64,000 nucleotides of DNA, from NCBI GenBank assembly GCA_943787795.1, contig CALSNU010000002.1, positions 480,001 through 544,000 of the forward strand, read 5' to 3'. Position numbers and translations under genes: made by a program. The notes below the pieces were generated by a model, which saw only the letters and a list, made by a program, of their open reading frames with translations, made no database searches and was not told the DNA's origin. Source of the stretch: an uncultured bacterium (lineage in GTDB: Bacteria > Planctomycetota > UBA1135 > GCA-002686595). Of the stretch, positions 1-20,758 are shown piece after piece. Every line of letters begins with the position of its first letter. Positions within the stretch are counted from its first letter, which is position 1.

Positions 1-1749
1 GATCAGCGCCAGGACGACGAACGGCGCTGCCATGGTCGCGCCGAACACCCCCATGCCGATCACGATTCGCATCACGCCGCCGCTGGCGCCGGCGGCGATC
101 AGGGTGCCGACGAAGGGACCGGTGCAGGTGAAGCTCGTGATCACCAGGGTCAGGCCCATGAGGAAGACCCCGTAGATCCCGCCCGTGCCGCTGGCCTTGC
201 CCGCGGCACCCATGAGGAACTGGGGCGGGTTGAGCGTGATCGCACCGAAGAGCGCCAGGGCGAAGACCACGAACAGGACGCCGATGAACAGGTTCGTCAC
301 GTAGTGCGTGGCGAAGGGCACCAGCAGGGGCCCGGCGAGGACCCCTAGCAGCACGAACATCAGCACGATCCCGAGCCCGTACACCGAGGCGAGCAGGAGC
401 GCGTTGCCGCCCTTCTCGTCCGCCTGCTTGGTGAAGAAGGAGATCGTGATGGGGATCATCGGGTAGGTGCAGGGCATCAGCAGGGTGAAGAGCCCCGCGC
501 CGATGGCCAGCAGGATGAACTCCAGCAGCCCGTCGCTCTCGGTCTCCTGGCCGAAGGAGCGCTTCTCGCCATCCTCCACCGGGGCCTCGATCGTGGGCGT
601 CGACTCCGCCGCGCCGACGACCGCCCCGGCGTCGGTCTCGGTGTCGGTCTCGGCGTCAGTGCCAGTGCCAGTGCCAGTGCCACTACCGGCATCGGGAACA
701 GCGCCAGGTTCCGTGGCTGCCCCTGCGCCGCCGCTGGCCGCCTGCGGGAGCGTCCATGTGGCGAAGGCCGCCGCGAACAGTGCGTCCGAGCCGGACCCCA
801 CGACCTCGATGCCGGAGAATTTCACCGGGAGGCAGGCGCCGTCGTCGCAGGACTGGCCGTCGAGGCCAATCTCCAGGTCACCCGGATCGAAGTCGTCGAA
901 GGCTTCACCGCGGAGGGCGAAGTGGAAGAGGCCCTCGTGGGCCCAGAGCCAGACCTCCTTCGAGTCCGGGTCTTGGGGGTCCTTCTCCTCCTGGACGTAG
1001 CGGAAGGGCTCGGGATACTGAACCTCGTCCTCCCAGTCCACGTTGCCGCCCTCGACGGTGACGGTGGTCGGGGTCCCGATCCCCGGACCCATGTCCTCGG
1101 CGGTGGGGCCGTGGTACATGTGCCAGTGCTCCGGCGTCGCCACCTGCACCACGAGCTCGACGATCTCGCCGTCGTCCCCGTCAAGCACCCTCGCGAACGC
1201 CCGCGCCGCCGCCGCCTCGTCGCCGAAGTCAGGGCTCCAGGTCAGCGGGTCCTCCTCGGGCTCGGCCAGCAGCGACTCGGGGAAGCCCTCCCAGACCGAC
1301 TCCGGCCCAGCCCCGAGGGTCGCGAGGTCCTCCTCAAAGGGGAGGCACTGGTTCTCGTCGCAGACCTGCCCCTCGACGAAGGCGCTGATCGCCCCGGCGT
1401 CCACGCCGGCGGCCGCGGCGCCCCGAGCGGCGGCGAACAGGTAGGTCTTCTTGTCGAAGACGCGCGCCGGCCCGTAGCCCTCGTCCGGCTTCACCTTGGG
1501 CTCGGGGTACCAGACCTCGGTCCACGCTGCGCCCTCAAGCTCCCCGGGGGTCACCGTGGTCGGCAGCCCACCGACCTCGCTGGGGTCCCCCTGGTCATAG
1601 ACCCAGCAGCCGAAGGACGGCCGGACCTGAACGGCCATGAGCACGTCGTCCCCGACGGCCTTCGAGAACAGCTTGACCTTGACGGACTGGGCGCTCGCGG
1701 GTGCAAGGGCCGAGAGTGCGACGAGGAGGAGAGTGAGGAGTCGAGACAT
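1..1749 (-). CDS. dsbD: DsbD-like thiol:disulfide interchange / cytochrome c biogenesis protein (3' end runs off window)
   Basis: Not in the ORF track because it is open at the window edge. Translating from ATG 1749 gives a signal peptide (MSRLLTLLLVALSALAPASAQ), two Ig-like segments with CDENQC and CDDGAC, a G/T/D/E linker, then a transmembrane domain with the DsbD motifs LLMPCTYPMIPITISFF and SFTCTGPFVG. Confidence 0.88.
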   Translation of the reverse strand, partial: MSRLLTLLLVALSALAPASAQSVKVKLFSKAVGDDVLMAVQVRPSFGCWVYDQGDPSEVGGLPTTVTPGELEGAAWTEVWYPEPKVKPDEGYGPARVFDKKTYLFAAARGAAAAGVDAGAISAFVEGQVCDENQCLPFEEDLATLGAGPESVWEGFPESLLAEPEEDPLTWSPDFGDEAAAARAFARVLDGDDGEIVELVVQVATPEHWHMYHGPTAEDMGPGIGTPTTVTVEGGNVDWEDEVQYPEPFRYVQEEKDPQDPDSKEVWLWAHEGLFHFALRGEAFDDFDPGDLEIGLDGQSCDDGACLPVKFSGIEVVGSGSDALFAAAFATWTLPQAASGGAGAATEPGAVPDAGSGTGTGTGTDAETDTETDAGAVVGAAESTPTIEAPVEDGEKRSFGQETESDGLLEFILLAIGAGLFTLLMPCTYPMIPITISFFTKQADEKGGNALLLASVYGLGIVLMFVLLGVLAGPLLVPFATHYVTNLFIGVLFVVFALALFGAITLNPPQFLMGAAGKASGTGGIYGVFLMGLTLVITSFTCTGPFVGTLIAAGASGGVMRIVIGMGVFGATMAAPFVVLALI

Positions 1750-14600: not shown

Positions 14601-15457
14601 GGGTCATGGGGCGCATGACTGATCGGGAACACCTCGGTCCAGTGGGCCGGATTGGCGCTTCCTCGGGTCCCTGCGGGGTCCTCGTAGTAGGAGTAGACGA
14701 TGTCCGCCGCCCCCGGCCCCGACGGCGTCGGGAGGTCTGCGGAACGAATTCGCATGACGAGCAGCCGACCGTCCCCCGCGACCATGGGCTCGAAGCCGCC
14801 GCCCGAGTGGAAGGCGCCCGTGGCGAGCTCGGAGAAGTTCGGGCCCGCGATCGTGGGTCCCTCCACCTCGATGCTCGCGATACGCGCCCCGGCCGTCTTC
14901 GGGGCGGCGACCTCGATGGCGAGCGGCGTCATGAACAGCTGCAGGCTACCGCCGGGCCCCCGCGTGGTCACCACGGCCTTGACCTGGTAGCGGTCCCGTC
15001 CGGCGGGCGTGCGGATCGGGAGCTCGTCGTCCCAGAAGCAGCTCTGAATGATCTCTCGCCCTGTGCCCGCCGCGAGGATCTGGGCCTGCGTGACCGGGTC
15101 ACCGCCCACGTAGGCCCAGCCGGTCCAGCGAAGGTTGGCCTCGCCGGGAGGCTGCAGCATGAGCGGGGCGCCGCCGCCCCGGCGACGGAGCTTCTCCGGA
15201 GTGAAGAGGGTGAAGCGCGGCGCGCGCGCCACCGTCATGGCCAGACGGCCATCCTGCGACGTCCGGAATGCAGGCAGGTGAGGGCGCTGGAAGCGGGGGT
15301 CGTGATCCTGCTCGAGCGGCCCCCCCTCATCGAGGACCCCGGTCACCTCTCTCCAGATCGAGGGGGACTCGGGAAGCGATTGCCCCGCTCCCAGGGGTGC
15401 GAGGAGGCCCGAGATGAGCGCCAGCACTCCAGCCCTTCCCTTGCTCGTCATTCGCAT
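11669..15457 (-). CDS. Large secreted hypothetical protein with a LamG/ConA-like region and one c-type heme motif
   Basis: 1262-aa ORF with a signal peptide, LamG-like WTHLGL...LLLDG...GWVDEFKV segment and CLSCH near the C-terminal third. Confidence 0.78.
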   Translation of the reverse strand: MRMTSKGRAGVLALISGLLAPLGAGQSLPESPSIWREVTGVLDEGGPLEQDHDPRFQRPHLPAFRTSQDGRLAMTVARAPRFTLFTPEKLRRRGGGAPLMLQPPGEANLRWTGWAYVGGDPVTQAQILAAGTGREIIQSCFWDDELPIRTPAGRDRYQVKAVVTTRGPGGSLQLFMTPLAIEVAAPKTAGARIASIEVEGPTIAGPNFSELATGAFHSGGGFEPMVAGDGRLLVMRIRSADLPTPSGPGAADIVYSYYEDPAGTRGSANPAHWTEVFPISHAPHDPRLNGPMELGGFGFAQFPFRAPDGQVVPDWEDLGGAYPWIDRGARNLFYTTIGDTLHLQDPNPQFPNRDPQSAAEWTETRYEAVGVPGDPRERWGAESSRTFQGVAVAGLWTRGKTVLLDGLLNDMDFAIGHSEASSYGGAPYNVGPQQRLVRLFEGSGVPSLDPTSGWVRLGYGRASETPGLPSGVNGNSSVIESTESKLHIADRLRPLRLRDVVWHVQNGKHTDEVAFDDLLDPGALIVAEMNGRLTLPDLAGPGFNDLEHRSGWNPVTRAFDLPVHLQNAATDADRWRLPAFGELVATGGSTGRLEPAALGGVYGRGLWLEDGLSLRFDAPDRAGPGVPDPEAFYVGLFVDCRFADDGERRPLVTFPDGTSVELLGRSSLRYMKGDRVLHRVLLPDDFSYVPDGGQAPEVHGFFREGAWTHLGLRIERAGRRVTLLLDGFPMDRWQDPSRSIFQPLASAGAITVGGAAAAGATSLRGWVDEFKVLAHDVDPETAANHARGTLIGFDESAQSTRWMDQVAASFPDWAHGELSEALRRRGEPAEERYASFVDATRDLGVHRVSIPSGARHLRSAVHFPEGPVFQDRPRPDSSANRFCLSCHTAGAPGGLGLDALTYRPGLAALRDPRRQPSQPPARIGGAIPNGIVDAGGSPRPRPDEPRPVDGSPVLVDRWLLDRWDGRTAEVRAVSLMSGDGVIGALAAGQQLDPLRLGTGEVDLRVNLDVAQGDVELVLLDTGGSAPVELHRRTAAHGPYRLFGPGVPAFDLQPGEYQLDATPAGGVTSSVPFTVAGGAPRTVATSADLFRQGSPSDGWFLRRNDLGDSLDPDEYVALTWDAAGRRYTGPTPADGWIASGVGSPGPGALEAAPGAHQGVVAAGYSVQRAGFYLVEGLASTQVAGAELIARVLHGRVAGGAPTTLFEQSLPAAGPPAVTSGPVWMEPGDVLWVVMAPGQTSVGDRFSWDFRVRGGDATWSQSFD

Positions 15458-15475
15458 GTCCTCGGGCTCCGGCGA

Positions 15476-16495
15476 TCAGCGGGACATGGCTTCGAGGAAG
15501 GCCACGAGCTGCGCGGCCTCTTCGTCCGTGAGCTCGATCGCGTCCATGCGATCGGAGAGGTGGGCGTTCGCGTTGCCTCCCTCGCGGTAGAAGTCGACGA
15601 CCTCGGCGAGGGTCGCGAGGCTACCGTCGTGCATGTAGGGAGCCGTCTTGGTGAGCATGCGGAGCCCTGGCGTGCGGAAGCGCCCCTGGTCTCCATCCTG
15701 GCCCGTGATCGCGAAGCGACCCGGCTCAGGTGCGCCGTCGATCACGCCGACGCCGGTGTTGTGGAACGACTCATCGCTGAAGTTGGGCCCGTTGTGGCAC
15801 CGCCAGCAGCGGCCCCGGCCCTCGTAGATCCAGAGCCCCGCCTCCTCGTCCGCGGAGAGGGCCTCGACGTCGCCGTCGCGAAAGCGGTCCACCGGCGAGT
15901 CGCCCACCGTCAGACCGCGCACGAAGCCGGCCAGCGCTGCCGCGAGCGCCGCGTCGTCCACCTCGCGCCCGAAGGCCTTCTGGAACTGCGCAGCGTAGGA
16001 CGGGTCGCTGGAGAGCCTGTTGACCGCCGCGGCCTTGCCCAGCCCCATCTCCTCCGGGTTCTCGATGGGCATCAGCACCTGCTCCTCGAGAGTCGCCGCC
16101 CGTCCGTCCCAGAGGACGTCCTCGCTGAGCCCCTTGTTCAGGAGCGAGGGGGCGTTGCGGACCGTGAGGTAGCCCTCGATGCCGCGGGAGAGCTTGCGGT
16201 TGTCCGCGAAGCCGAGCTCGGGTTGATGGCACGAGGCGCAGGAGACCGAGCGGCGCGGGGACAAGACCGGGTCAAAGAAGAGCCGGCGGCCCAGGTCGAA
16301 GACCTCCTGAGAGGCTCCGAAGCCCTCCGCGAGCTCCTCCACGCCGAGGGGCGCGGTGCGCACGAAGGGTGAGGGGAGGGAGTCCCGGGGAATCAGAGGG
16401 GGGCCCTCGTCGTCCTGCGCGAACTGCGCGGCGACGAGGACCGGCAAGAGGACCAGCCAGCCCAGGCGCCCCGCTCCGATTCCCCGGTCTCCCAT
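15476..16495 (-). CDS. Diheme cytochrome c peroxidase / MauG superfamily protein
   Basis: LGRRLFFDPVLS, CASCH, RNAPSLLN, LWDGRA, CWRCH, FRTPGLR and TAPYMHDGS; signal peptide. Confidence 0.92.
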   Translation of the reverse strand: MGDRGIGAGRLGWLVLLPVLVAAQFAQDDEGPPLIPRDSLPSPFVRTAPLGVEELAEGFGASQEVFDLGRRLFFDPVLSPRRSVSCASCHQPELGFADNRKLSRGIEGYLTVRNAPSLLNKGLSEDVLWDGRAATLEEQVLMPIENPEEMGLGKAAAVNRLSSDPSYAAQFQKAFGREVDDAALAAALAGFVRGLTVGDSPVDRFRDGDVEALSADEEAGLWIYEGRGRCWRCHNGPNFSDESFHNTGVGVIDGAPEPGRFAITGQDGDQGRFRTPGLRMLTKTAPYMHDGSLATLAEVVDFYREGGNANAHLSDRMDAIELTDEEAAQLVAFLEAMSR

Positions 16496-16501
16496 GTCTC
16501 G

Positions 16502-17593
16502 CTACTTGCCCTTGGCCTTGGCCTTGGCCTTCGCCAAGAGGTCCGCGACGACGGCATCGATGTCCGTGCCGGAGTGACCGCGGTAGGCGATGGTGCCGTC
16601 CGTGTCGAGCACGAGGTACGTGGGGTAGCCCCGGACCTTGTAGAGGTCCGAGATCGGCGTCATGGCCTGGCCCTGGAAGGCGCTCAGCCAGGTGAGGCCG
16701 AACTCCTTGACGCCCTCGTGGTAGGCGTCGGGCGCGTCGCCAGTGTTGATTCCGATGAGGGCGAAGGGGTCGTTTTCGTGACGCTCAACGAGCGTCTTAA
16801 GGTGCGGCATGCCGCGCCTGCAGGGGGGTCACCAGAACCCGTAGAAGTCGAGGGCCACGACCTTGCCGCGGTAGTCCTCGATGGAAAACTGGAAGCCGTC
16901 GATCGTCTCACCGACGAAGGTGGGAGCGACCTTGCCGACCTCGGAGTCCTCGGGCGTTGCCTTCGAGGCGCGGGCGGCGGTGCCGTACACGGTGTTCGAG
17001 TACTTCTCACCGATCTCGTCCATCCACTTCTTGGCGCGATCAGGGTCGCTGTCCCCCACGATCGTGGCGGCGAAGAAGAGCGACGCGGCCTTGGCGTTGT
17101 CCGACTTGGCGGTCTTGGCCGCCTTCTCGAGCATGGCCACGGACTCTTCGATCCCGACGTACTTCTTGTTGGCGTTGAGGCTCTTGACCGCGCTGGTGAA
17201 CCACTCGGCGTCCGCGTGGTTGTCGATGATCGACTGGAACAGCGGCGTGAGGACGGCGCCGCGCTCCTTCGAGCGCACGTCGCGGTTCTCCTTGATGTGA
17301 TCCACGAGCCAGAGCGTCGCGCGACCCTCGCCGGCCTTGGACATGGCCTCGAAGCGCGGCCAGTAGCGCTTGATCGGCGAATTGCCCCGGAGCTCGCGGC
17401 GCTGCGCCTTGTCGGCCGCCTTGAGCTCCTTGGTGTACTCGACGAGGGCGGCCTCGAACTCCGTGTCGAGGGCTGTGAAGTCGTCGATGGGCGACGCCGA
17501 AGCCGAAGCAACGGGCACCTCCCTGACGATGGGATCGGCCGCGTACGCGACCATGGGAATCAGTGCGACTCCCAGGATGGACTTGAATCTCAT
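16502..17593 (-). CDS. Exported TlpA/thioredoxin-like disulfide reductase with an in-frame UGA in a UxxC motif (probable selenoprotein, 363 aa)
   Basis: The minus strand reads GAC TTC TAC GGG TTC TGG TGA CCC CCC TGC AGG CGC GGC ATG CCG CAC (DFYGFW-U-PPCRRGMPH). The upstream half has APTF...DYRGKVVALDF; the downstream in-frame half has LIGIN and YKVRGYPTYLVLDTDG. Signal peptide from ATG 17593. Confidence 0.85.
16780..16819 (-). promoter_or_regulatory. Candidate bacterial SECIS hairpin(s) downstream of the UGA
   Basis: Hairpin AGGCGCGG-CAUG-CCGCACCU (16819-16800, one C/A mismatch) and perfect 7-bp hairpin GACGCUC-GUU-GAGCGUC (16796-16780). Confidence 0.5.
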
Positions 17594-17646
17594 GGGTAGA
17601 TAACTCGGGAGAGGGACCTCCTGAGCGTACCCAAATCGACCGTCCC

Positions 17647-17673
17647 CGTTGACATCGAGCGCCGATGTCAACG
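17647..17673. promoter_or_regulatory. Perfect 11-bp inverted repeat, putative operator or hairpin
   Basis: CGTTGACATCG-agcgc-CGATGTCAACG, 54 nt upstream of the UGA-containing gene. Confidence 0.5.
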
Positions 17674-17679
17674 TCCCGA

Positions 17680-17703
17680 GGTAGGGGTTGTGTAGCCCCT
17701 ACC
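17680..17703 (-). terminator. Hairpin right after yqeY, possible terminator
   Basis: GGTAGGGG...CCCCTACC 8-bp stem 4 nt past the stop codon; no U-tract. Confidence 0.45.
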
Positions 17704-17706
17704 CCT

Positions 17707-18147
17707 TCAGAGACGCGCCGCAGCGAGGCGATTGACGAGCTTGCCGTCGATGACGTCTCGGTGGCTGGCCATGACCGCCTTCATCACCTTGCCGATATCG
17801 CACTTCTCGGAGGCGCCTGTATCGGCGATGGCCTGCTCGACGATGGCCGCCGTGGCCGCCTCGTCCAGCATCTGCGGCAGGTAGCCCTCGAGGACCGCGA
17901 TCTCCGCGTCCTCCTTCTCGGCGAGATCGAGACGATCCGCCGCGCGGTACTGCTCGGCGCTGTCCTTGCGCGACTTCACGCCGCGCCGGACCACGGCCAT
18001 GACCCCTGCCTCGTCGAGGTCGGCGCCTCGCTCGATACGCTCGTTCTTCATGGCGGCGATGAGCATCCGCAGGGTGTCCCTGCGGAGCGCATCGCCGGCC
18101 TTCATGGCCGCCTTGAGGTCGTCGCCGATCGTCTGCTCGAGGGACAT
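17707..18147 (-). CDS. yqeY: GatB/YqeY domain protein
   Basis: DLKAAMKAGD, RKDSAEQY, EIAVLEGYLPQML, DIGKVMKAV; ATG immediately after the gyrA stop. Confidence 0.9.
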   Translation of the reverse strand: MSLEQTIGDDLKAAMKAGDALRRDTLRMLIAAMKNERIERGADLDEAGVMAVVRRGVKSRKDSAEQYRAADRLDLAEKEDAEIAVLEGYLPQMLDEAATAAIVEQAIADTGASEKCDIGKVMKAVMASHRDVIDGKLVNRLAAARL

Positions 18148-18148
18148 A

Positions 18149-20758
18149 TCAGTCATCCGAAGGGGTTTCAGGATCGCTCTCATCGCCGGCGCTGGCGGCG
18201 TCGGAGTCCGCTTGGTCTCCGGACGTCACGTCTCCGGAAGTCACGTCCCCGGAGAGGGAGTCGCCCTCGACGCCCTCGCCCTCCTCGTCACCAAACCTCT
18301 CGAGGTCGGAGCTGGAGATGATCTCCACCGAGACGAGGCTGTCCCCGTCCTTGAGGTTGACCAGGCGAACGCCCTGGGTGTTACGGCCCACCGTCGAGAT
18401 GTCCGCGATGGACGTCCGCACGATCATGCCGCTCTCGGTGATAAACATCGCCTCATCCTCCTCGCGGCAGAACTTGGCCGTGATCACCTTGCCGTTGCGA
18501 TCGGTGGTCCGGATGTCGATGACGCCCTGGCCCCCGCGCCCCTTGATGGGGTAGTCGGAGAGCGGTGTGCGCTTGCCGTAGCCGTTGACCGAGGCCGTGA
18601 GCAGGAACGCGTCCGGCTCCGCGACGACCATGCCGACGACCTGGTCGTCCCCCAGGAGCTTGGCGCCCTTGACGCCTCTCGAGGAGCGGCCCATGGCCCG
18701 CACGCCCGACTCGTCGAAGCGAATCGCGCGCCCGCAGGCCATGGAGAGCATGACCGTGTCACCCGGGCTCGCCAGGCGGACGGACACGACCTCGTCGTCC
18801 TCGTCCACGAGGATGGCGCGGATGCCGCCCTTCTTGGGGCGAGAGTACGCCTCGAGCTTCGTCTTCTTCACCACGCCGTTGCGGGTCGCGAAGACGATGA
18901 AGCGCTCCTCGTCGAACTCAGGCACGCGGAGGATCGTGTGGATCTCCTCGCCGTCACGGAGCTTGAGCAGGTTCGTGATGGCGCGCCCCTTGGAGCTCCG
19001 GCCGGCCTCGGGGACCTGGAAGCCCTTCTTCCAGAAGACCTGGCCGTAGTTCGAGAAGAACAGGAGGTAATCGTGGGTCGAGGTCACGAACAGCGACTTG
19101 AGCACGTCGCCCTCCTTCGCCTCTGAACCACGGACACCGCGGCCGCCACGGGCCTGGGTGCGGTAGGTATCCAGCGGCGTCCGCTTGACGTAACCGTCGC
19201 GGGAGAAGGTGACCACCGTGAGGTCCTCGGTGATGAGGTCCGCGATGTCGATGCTGCCGTCCACCTCCTCGATGCTGATCTTCGTCCGGCGCTCGTCCCC
19301 GTACTTCTCGATCACCTCGACCAGGTCCTCGCGGATCATCTCGGTCACGCGCTCGGCGCGCTCGAGAATGTCCTTGAGGTCCGCGATGCGGGCCACCAAT
19401 TCCGCGTGCTCGGCCTCGAGCTTGTCCCGCTCAAGCCCGGTCAGGGAGCCGAGTCGCAGGTCCACGATGGCCTGACTCTGACGGTCAGAGAGGCTGAACT
19501 CGGCCGCGAGGGCCTTCTTGGCCGTGTCGCGATCCGCCGACCCGCGGATGATCTCGATCACCCGGTCGATGTTGTCGACCGCGATCCGCAGACCGTCGAC
19601 GATGTGCTTGCGCTCCTCGGCCTTGCGCAGGAGGTACTTGGTCCGGCGCCGGATGACATCGCGACGGTGGACCAGCCAGGCGTTCATCAGCTCCCGCAGC
19701 GACAGCGTGCGCGGCTGGCGGCGGTCGATGGCCAGGTTGATGATCGAGTACGTGCTCTGGAGCGGCGTGAACTTCCACAGCAGGTTGAGCACCACATGGG
19801 GGTCCTCGCCCTTCTTGACCTTCACCACCAGCCGCATGCCGTCGCGGCTGGAGTAGTCCGTCACGTCGGCGATGCCAGTGATCCGGCCGTCCTTCACGAC
19901 CTGCACGATCTTGGCGATGATCCCGGAGTCCTGACCGCCCTTCTTGGTCTGGTAGGGGATCTCGGTGAAGACGATCTCCTCGCGCCCCTTCTCCTCTTCG
20001 ATGTGGTACTTCGCGCGAACACGGACGAGCCCGCGGCCGGTCCGGTAAGCCTGAACGATGCCGCTGCGGCCCATGATGGTGCCGCCCGTGGGGAAGTCCG
20101 GACCGGGAACGAGGCTGAAGAGTTCCTCCTCCGGCAGGTCGGGGTCATCGAGCAGCGCGATCAGGCCCGCGCCGATCTCCCGCAGGTTGTGCGGCGGCAG
20201 GCTCGTCGCCATGCCGACGGCAATGCCGTCGGAGCCGTTGCAGAGCAGGTTCGGGAAGCGCGAGGGCAGCACCGTGGGCTGCATGCGCGTCTCGTCGTAG
20301 TTGGGCTCGAGGTCGACGGTCTCCTTGTCCAGATCGGACAGGACCTCCATCGTGATCCCTGCCATGCGGGCCTCCGTGTAACGCATGGCCGCCGGCGGGT
20401 CCGCGTCGATGGAGCCGAAGTTGCCCTGACCGTCCACCAGCGGGTACCGCAGGGAGAAGTCCTGGGCCATGCGGACCAGGGTCGGGTAGATCACCGACTC
20501 CCCGTGCGGGTGGTAGTTCCCCGACGTGTCGCCCGCGACCTTGGCGCACTTCCTGTACTTGGCCCGGGGGCTCAGGTTCAGGTCGTTCATTGCGACAAGG
20601 ATGCGTCGCTGCGAGGGTTTGAGGCCGTCGCGAACGTCGGGCAGGGCGCGCGAGTGGATGACCGAAAGGGCGTACGTCAGGTACGACTCTTTCATCTCAC
20701 GCTCGATGGAGCGCGGGGTCGTGTTGCCCCCGAACTGGGGTGCTTCCGTATCGGTCAT
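18149..20758 (-). CDS. gyrA: DNA gyrase subunit A
   Basis: [26 protein letters not shown] (catalytic Tyr), GyrA-box-like QARGGRG, beta-pinwheel repeats and an acidic tail. Confidence 0.97.

Follow-up and report, generated by a model that had tools for sequence, protein, structure and literature searches.

The window analysed, a stretch of 64 000 nucleotides, carries on its minus strand a gene that a standard ORF list cuts in two (16829-17671 and 16502-16810). Translation from 17593 to 16502 gave 363 codons with one internal stop, a TGA at 16831-16829, and the next ATG, at 16810, lies in frame 21 nt past it. The earlier note had read the two ORFs as in-frame halves of a single gene with no other lesion, and both points were borne out by the translation. 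The TGA lies in the context FYGFW-TGA-PPC-RRGMPH, i.e. W-U-P-P-C, in which the predicted selenocysteine (Sec) is residue 255; U255 and C258 are the sole Sec/Cys positions of the read-through protein. Public database entries end the upstream product at 254 aa; the note had remarked that genes of this class are often mis-annotated as split. The features of the locus are collected in Table 1.

Table 1. Features of the redoxin locus and of its surroundings in the window; hairpin positions with a plus sign are counted from the UGA.
Feature	Position	Strand	Basis or remark
Read-through gene, predicted exported UxxC TlpA/ResA-type selenoprotein, 363 aa	16502..17593	-	TAG stop 16502-16504
In-frame UGA, predicted Sec 255, nucleophile position	16829..16831	-	Frame, conservation, independent contig
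Codon of resolving Cys258, between UGA and next ATG	16820..16822	-	Invariant in 28/28 aligned proteins
Signal peptide (residues 1-18), likely cleavable, without a lipobox Cys	17540..17593	-	By eye; hydropathy; low pLDDT
N-terminal alpha-solenoid (TPR/HEAT-like), residues ~38-212	16958..17482	-	AlphaFold helices, pLDDT 94-98
TlpA/ResA/DsbE-type thioredoxin domain, residues 213-354	16532..16957	-	Pfam; structural matches
Proximal hairpin with CAUG loop, +10 to +29; predicted to compact the spacer	16800..16819	-	MFE; z -2.26 vs synonymous recodings
Distal hairpin of 7 bp with a GUU loop at +40 (C-GUU-G at +39); likely SECIS/SelB site	16780..16796	-	Covariation, RNAalifold
Di-haem cytochrome c peroxidase/MauG-family gene, two CxxCH, 6 nt after the redoxin stop; candidate partner	15476..16495	-	Pfam CCP_MauG 166.8 bits
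DsbD-like gene, 5' part	1-1257	-	C-terminal thioredoxin domain with U-V-V-C just outside the window, G000:C2:479457

The W-UGA-x-x-C motif was dropped as evidence by itself, since bare W-TGA-x-x-C occurs in ~90 frames of the six frames of the genome, few of them in redox domains, a count no higher than chance. The case for U255 rests on the domain context and on conservation, not on the motif. A genome-wide recoding, which the note had discounted, does not apply: UGA is the stop codon of 1991 of the 2445 long codon-typical ORFs, and the genome has prfB.

Pfam matches of the read-through protein span the TGA and exceed their gathering scores: AhpC-TSA (PF00578) with 55.3 bits against 26, Redoxin (PF08534) with 49.8 against 26.6 and Thioredoxin_8 with 48.3 against 27. 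The NCBIfam equivalog cut-offs were not reached for ResA (74.5 vs 170), TlpA (50.4 vs 230) or DsbE (29.8 vs 123). With respect to the UGC-containing TlpA selenoprotein family, the motif here is UPPC and NF041054 was not among the NCBIfam matches. AlphaFold2, run with a 28-sequence alignment, gave a model of mean pLDDT 91.2 in which a disordered N-terminus is followed by helices (residues 39-211) and by a ResA/DsbE-type domain, so that the long helical N-terminal domain foreseen in the note was recovered. Structural matches of the thioredoxin domain were Chlorobium DsbE (Z 20.9, rmsd 1.6, 136 aligned), Bacillus subtilis ResA (Z 20.6) and Bradyrhizobium TlpA (Z 15.7); Foldseek and profile searches were consistent with ResA/TlpA/DsbE, and Pro324, in the Y/F/W-P-T loop, is invariant in the alignment. 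On these models the protein resembles ResA, TlpA and DsbE by fold and stands outside those NCBIfam equivalogs. The N-terminal domain folded alone had no Foldseek match at E<=0.001, and VIA-align returned generic helical repeats only, the best Z of 11.2 being to designed repeats. A signal peptide had also been proposed and appears likely by eye, from a hydrophobic stretch ending in AYA, and from hydropathy, with an 11-residue peak of 2.6 at residue 6; export of the protein is highly likely.

Conservation of the UGA was followed outwards from the genus. The codon is kept in 17/17 other genomes of the genus, and TGG-TGA was found at this column in 31/31 domains of 30 loci, 30 of these domains coming from 29 other genomes. 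A scan of the phylum gave matches at E<=1e-22 in 42 of 201 genomes, with one TGA in 77 of the 80 matches; where 30 phylum loci were fetched, the column held TGA in 34 of 35 domains and TGC in one. Altogether, 78 distinct domains carry TGA (69) or Cys (nine) at the site, and TGC stands at the UGA column in eight homologues. This pairing of UGA with Cys at one column is what the note had asked an alignment to look for, and it places the UGA at the position of the nucleophilic Cys, as had been claimed. UxxC redoxins are, as also stated there, a recognised class of selenoproteins, catalogued in Table 1 of PMC13188914.

The idea that a Cys gene acquired the TGA by nonsense mutation or by a miscalled base is refuted by this conservation and has a negligible probability. 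The assembly does carry frameshifts in a paralogue of the gene (G000:C1:752700-754123), but 29 other genomes and loci elsewhere in the phylum have the same TGA, which is also read by an independent contig of DNA origin (run X4, from a study outside those flagged as possible sources) that spans 16400-17354 with one difference, at 16886. Two contigs from RNA libraries, X17 and X18, bridge the UGA codon (nine of 14 and four of eight differences listed, respectively), for which DNA carry-over is possible, and neither is counted as proof of the sequence or of expression; for contig X7, two of three differences are listed. The paralogue itself (L086) has the same +39 hairpin as the gene studied here and a helical N-terminal part spread over three frames; its frame shifts are likely assembly indels.

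The half of the gene after the UGA is under purifying selection, with synonymous to nonsynonymous ratios of 11:3, 16:3, 9:1 and 11:5. Among 11 close relatives, synonymous variation dips at U+1 to U+17, where 2/16 sites vary against 111/257 elsewhere (Fisher p 0.017). A true stop at the UGA, with a restart at the ATG 21 nt on, would yield a helical protein plus a thioredoxin half devoid of catalytic activity. This would agree with the 254-aa upstream product held in databases and with UGA being the main stop of the genome, and because Sec insertion competes with RF2 some truncated product is to be expected. However, the Cys between the UGA and the ATG is invariant, the Met is not conserved (I or L in several orthologues), and one fold would be divided between the two products; we consider this explanation very improbable.

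The host genome, of 4.7 Mb and 85% complete, was searched for selA, selB, selC and selD, the check proposed in the earlier note, and all four were present. selA, selB and selD scored above curated cut-offs and the tRNA-Sec reached 69 bits (Rfam); SelB has its barrel and the winged-helix 3 domain above cut-off, and selD carries its own in-frame TGA. Across other genomes, selA and selB were each found in 40 of the 41 genomes searched and selD in 59 of 61 genomes of the order; one genome (G003, 78% complete) keeps the UGA, yet selA and selB were not found in it. The note had named a lack of Sec machinery together with TGC or TGT in close relatives as grounds for giving up the selenoprotein; the machinery is complete and the close relatives have TGA in 30/30 domains of 29 other genomes. 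Some Deltaproteobacteria are known to have Cys tRNAs with a UCA anticodon, and as the genome is 85% complete the UGA might be read as Cys by such a tRNA, or as Trp. Against this, the only tRNA with a TCA anticodon, located by ARAGORN at default settings, is of the Sec type and matches the Rfam tRNA-Sec (relaxed settings gave noise), and FdhA and SelD of the genome have UGA at their Sec sites. Decoding as another residue thus appears highly improbable. The readings as error, pseudogene or re-initiation are rejected, and from the sequences we infer Sec insertion, a prediction that we hold as practically certain for this UGA.

The earlier note made no mention of a SECIS. MFE folding of the 60 nt that begin at the UGA gives a pair of hairpins (-21.5 kcal/mol, z -2.7). 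For the distal hairpin, 91.7% of 144 cells were paired over 24 sequences, with 14 compensatory changes in which both sides differ, in a test where the structure was taken from one of the 24 and kin are not independent. This level of pairing was reached in 0/500 shuffles, and slid registers gave 27-44%. The distal hairpin was also the only consensus helix returned by RNAalifold on a 17-sequence subset from which the HERSLV type was excluded, and the changes in it tie amino-acid and codon choice on both arms. Cys homologues pair just 0-3 of six positions. The hairpin was equalled by 4/300 synonymous recodings, and a comparable one at +39-41 follows 23 of the 1991 UGA ends of long ORFs. Over positions 15400-18300, Rfam gave no SECIS-type or other meaningful family, with one chance match, and a promoter and terminator scan gave nothing above shuffles.

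The 69 UGA domains fall into 25 with a GGUC loop at +32, 29 with a GU-type loop at about +39/40 and 15 below both thresholds; the hairpin threshold was passed by 0/9 Cys domains. All 25 domains with the +32 GGUC loop read HERSLV. The 18-nt hairpin of this class is nearly invariant across families and always encodes HERSLV (phylum loci, e.g. L119-L141), so that the RNA element appears to fix the peptide. Its 3' arm is the stretch that, in the +40 hairpin, forms the loop and the 5' arm. Trees used to compare the +32 and +40 classes, built with the trait columns masked and with the 15 weak and nine Cys rows left out, required at least two changes on starred branches and four on the best tree; the trees are unrooted, and no order of the shift is claimed.

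The distal hairpin agrees with the bSECIS model in its loop (3-9 nt, G in the first two loop positions, N1-G-U-N-N2; here GUU), its stem (4-16 bp; here 7 bp) and its energy (-9.5 kcal/mol, limit -7.5), as scored with our own script. It differs from that model in its spacing, which is 39 nt to GUU or 38 nt to CGUUG instead of the 16-37 nt from UGA to apical loop given as the consensus in PMC13188914, and in the separate hairpin between UGA and stem. No hairpin at +17 to +38 passed the bSECIS loop rule. At 29 candidate UGA sites of the genome, scored by a strict no-bulge rule and partly chosen by a hairpin filter, the loop lies at +18 to +25 in 21, at +33/34 in SelD and at +39/40 in the present gene and its paralogue, and was absent from five. 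With most loops of the genome at +18 to +25, a longer SelB is not favoured as the reason for the distant loop.

The nearer hairpin was assessed in the same genes, with identical windows merged and with classes set by the distal loop rather than by the +9..+32 region. The idea that it is a conserved element of fixed register was unsupported, as 58% of cells were paired and 114/500 shuffles were as high. Compared with synonymous recodings, the +9..+32 region was more stable (z<-1) in every one of the 24 distant-loop genes (mean -10.5 kcal/mol, z -2.5); the same threshold was passed in 4/24 +32-loop genes, 2/9 Cys genes and 10/15 weak genes. On these counts the proximal hairpin is selected for, though its register varies. 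With it folded, 9-15 nt (median 12) are unpaired between the UGA and the distal stem, as against a linear 30-32, and 21 ordinary UGA sites of the genome have 9-17 unpaired nt (median 12), counts in which the first 8 nt were held unpaired by construction and the 21 comparison sites were partly picked by the hairpin filter. A proximal hairpin of -4 kcal/mol or better is present in only 11/24 +32-loop genes.

SelD of the order offers a similar comparison. In 5/5 genes whose loop lies at +33/34 there is a proximal hairpin, with energies of -6.6 to -7.8 kcal/mol, and in 10/11 genes whose loop lies around +27 no proximal hairpin is more stable than -3.4 kcal/mol, in a set of 17 rows from 31 loci of which one row is Cys and in which three of the five long-spacer genes come from one genus. 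A test of independent pairs for loop distance against proximal hairpin found two pairs on starred branches (p 0.5) and was underpowered.

Sec might instead be inserted with the proximal hairpin, at +10 to +29 with the loop CAUG, as the SelB site and the distal one in a helper role, such as a brake on the ribosome or a stabiliser of the mRNA. The proximal hairpin occupies the usual SECIS position, and selection for it is indicated in the 24 distant-loop genes as well as in 10 of the 15 UGA domains below both hairpin thresholds, so that it may suffice alone in the latter. Its shifting register between orthologues speaks against this arrangement, as does the likeness of the distal loop to the GU/GG loops that follow 21 further candidate UGAs in this genome, and we regard it as rather unlikely. 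The opposite assignment, with the distal hairpin as SelB site and the proximal hairpin as spacer, is modestly favoured by the sequence comparisons. When a UGA is in the A site, about ten downstream bases lie inside the ribosome. The proximal hairpin would then fold at the ribosome entry site, with the A site within reach of SelB-GTP-Sec-tRNA bound to the distal GU loop. Whether Planctomycetes at large use such a two-hairpin SECIS, in which SelB would measure an unpaired path of ~12 nt rather than linear distance and the spacer hairpin would allow the site to lie up to 40 nt away, we rate as an even question. Overall, we think it very probable that the locus holds one gene, its UGA almost certainly read as Sec, whose product is likely an exported U-P-P-C thiol-disulfide reductase and whose SelB site likely is the GU-loop hairpin 38-39 nt downstream, which the nearer hairpin is predicted to place at an ordinary distance.

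An SECIS of the Clostridium OhILAs MsrA is reportedly described with two stem-loops and may be a precedent. The literature searched, which did not extend to key older papers including the original bSECISearch paper, held no account of a spacer-hairpin SECIS. BSepDB (PMC13326102) gives a canonical SECIS for 87.4% of its entries and describes the rest as uncharacterised, and both BSepDB and deep-Sep note atypical SECIS elements as unresolved.

Among catalogued selenoproteins, the protein stands closest to the UxxC families listed under PF00578 (Prx-like thiol:disulfide oxidoreductase), PF08534 (Redoxin) and cd02966 (thiol-disulfide isomerase-like) in Table 1 of PMC13188914 (119 families), with which it shares the Pfam domains, UxxC at the N-terminal redox position and splitting by gene callers; the 'Prx-like 1' family had 225 sequences in the GOS survey (PMC2398784). 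It differs from them in its likely signal peptide, its 175-residue alpha-solenoid and a SECIS-like loop beyond the model spacing. Kim et al. (2016) listed two thioredoxin-like selenoprotein candidates, split in IMG, in planctomycete P1, with a Cys homologue in Singulisphaera; neither of these 'thiol-disulfide isomerase-like thioredoxin' entries had a SECIS by bSECISearch (PMC4807772 S9 Table). Both those candidates and the present gene are planctomycete and split; the likeness is by description only, and no SECIS structure was proposed there. The protein is a new member of a known UxxC class, and the new part is a likely SECIS variant that departs from the canonical model in its spacing.

ResA, DsbE and TlpA are extracytoplasmic reducing redoxins, Cys-only and membrane-anchored. 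The present protein shares their fold, but they have no solenoid and it scores below their NCBIfam cut-offs. Three residues past its second Cys it has Gly, at the position of ResA Glu80, which we take to be a residue with a functional role. It probably acts as a disulfide reductase after export and carries an alpha-solenoid at its N-terminus. Its selenolate would attack a substrate disulfide and Cys258 would resolve the bond, as in ResA/TlpA; the DsbD-like protein with its own UxxC (G000:C2:479457) could supply the electrons, and the solenoid likely binds client proteins. A reducing role of this kind, in which the DsbD of the genome, a UxxC candidate as well, would provide electrons for exported proteins bound by the alpha-solenoid, seems fairly probable.

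The peroxidase/MauG gene adjoins the redoxin gene in 16/17 other genomes of the genus and in four more distant genomes (G020, G110, G028 and G036); no peroxidase gene lies within ~1.5 kb of the redoxin in most other loci of distant homologues. A Cytochrom_C_asm gene is present elsewhere in the genome. The di-haem peroxidase is the leading single client, e.g. for reduction of its CxxCH motifs, an assignment that is tentative and on balance unlikely. A contig titled Paracoccaceae (L058) has the planctomycete-genus order gyrA-yqeY-redoxin-peroxidase and is likely mislabelled or misbinned.

The genome contains 29 candidate Sec-UGA sites in 27 genes, a list hand-picked from coding-potential screens and probably incomplete. 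Those that resemble known families are FdhA, SelD, SelW/Rdx, AhpD CxxU, a PrdB-like, a SelL-like, a DF family and a DG-like candidate, the DsbD UxxC, six TlpA-like and two Trx7-like UxxC proteins. Many of the 27 have apparent signal peptides, and close relatives of the lineage occur in marine metagenomes. Directly upstream of one small UxxC Trx7 candidate, on the same strand, lies prfB, encoding RF2 (L092, G000:C7:98718-100220).

Three FG-GAP/ASPIC-UnbV proteins (L102, L103 and G000:C1:1248719) share the motif U-S-x-[YF]-W-R and, at +19, a hairpin with a GUG loop. Their TGA is conserved in 11/11 domains read, from 12 loci, and two paralogues without the UGA carry Gln there rather than Cys. ASPIC/FG-GAP candidates are among the entries proposed in the S9 Table of PMC4807772, and none is among the families consulted in the table of PMC13188914. 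L099 (G000:C2:428135, minus strand) encodes an exported protein that matched neither Pfam nor NCBIfam and has the motif GHPLGC-T-U-(G/N)NG. TGA stands at the same site in 12/12 loci including G000, and the motif may resemble that of eukaryotic selenoprotein N. Two ORFs have two in-frame UGAs each, L100 (G000:C4:265626 and 265386) and L105 (G000:C5:49310 and 48764), with a GU-loop hairpin behind every UGA and no family match; L105 has CxxCH before its first UGA. Further UGA candidates without a selenoprotein family match are L097, L098, L101 and L106, namely DsbD_N with GYI-U-IC, FG-GAP with W-U-C, GSC-U-G and VPGVW-U-PG.

The protein by itself corrects an annotation, as database entries are cut at 254 aa. 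The RNA element matters more, for the planctomycete redoxin candidates of 2016 had no detectable SECIS (PMC4807772 S9). A two-hairpin SECIS, if true, would free the protein sequence near the active site, and would account for some of the 12.6% of selenoprotein genes in bacteria that lack a canonical SECIS. A spacer-hairpin rule would widen SECIS searches and guide the placement of SECIS elements in engineered selenoproteins. A 2026 review (PMC13188914), in its accessible text, ties large selenoproteomes mainly to anaerobes, and Planctomycetes are absent from that text. If the present reading is true, the genome would hold a hidden exported selenoproteome, with 27 candidate genes, several of them in uncatalogued families.
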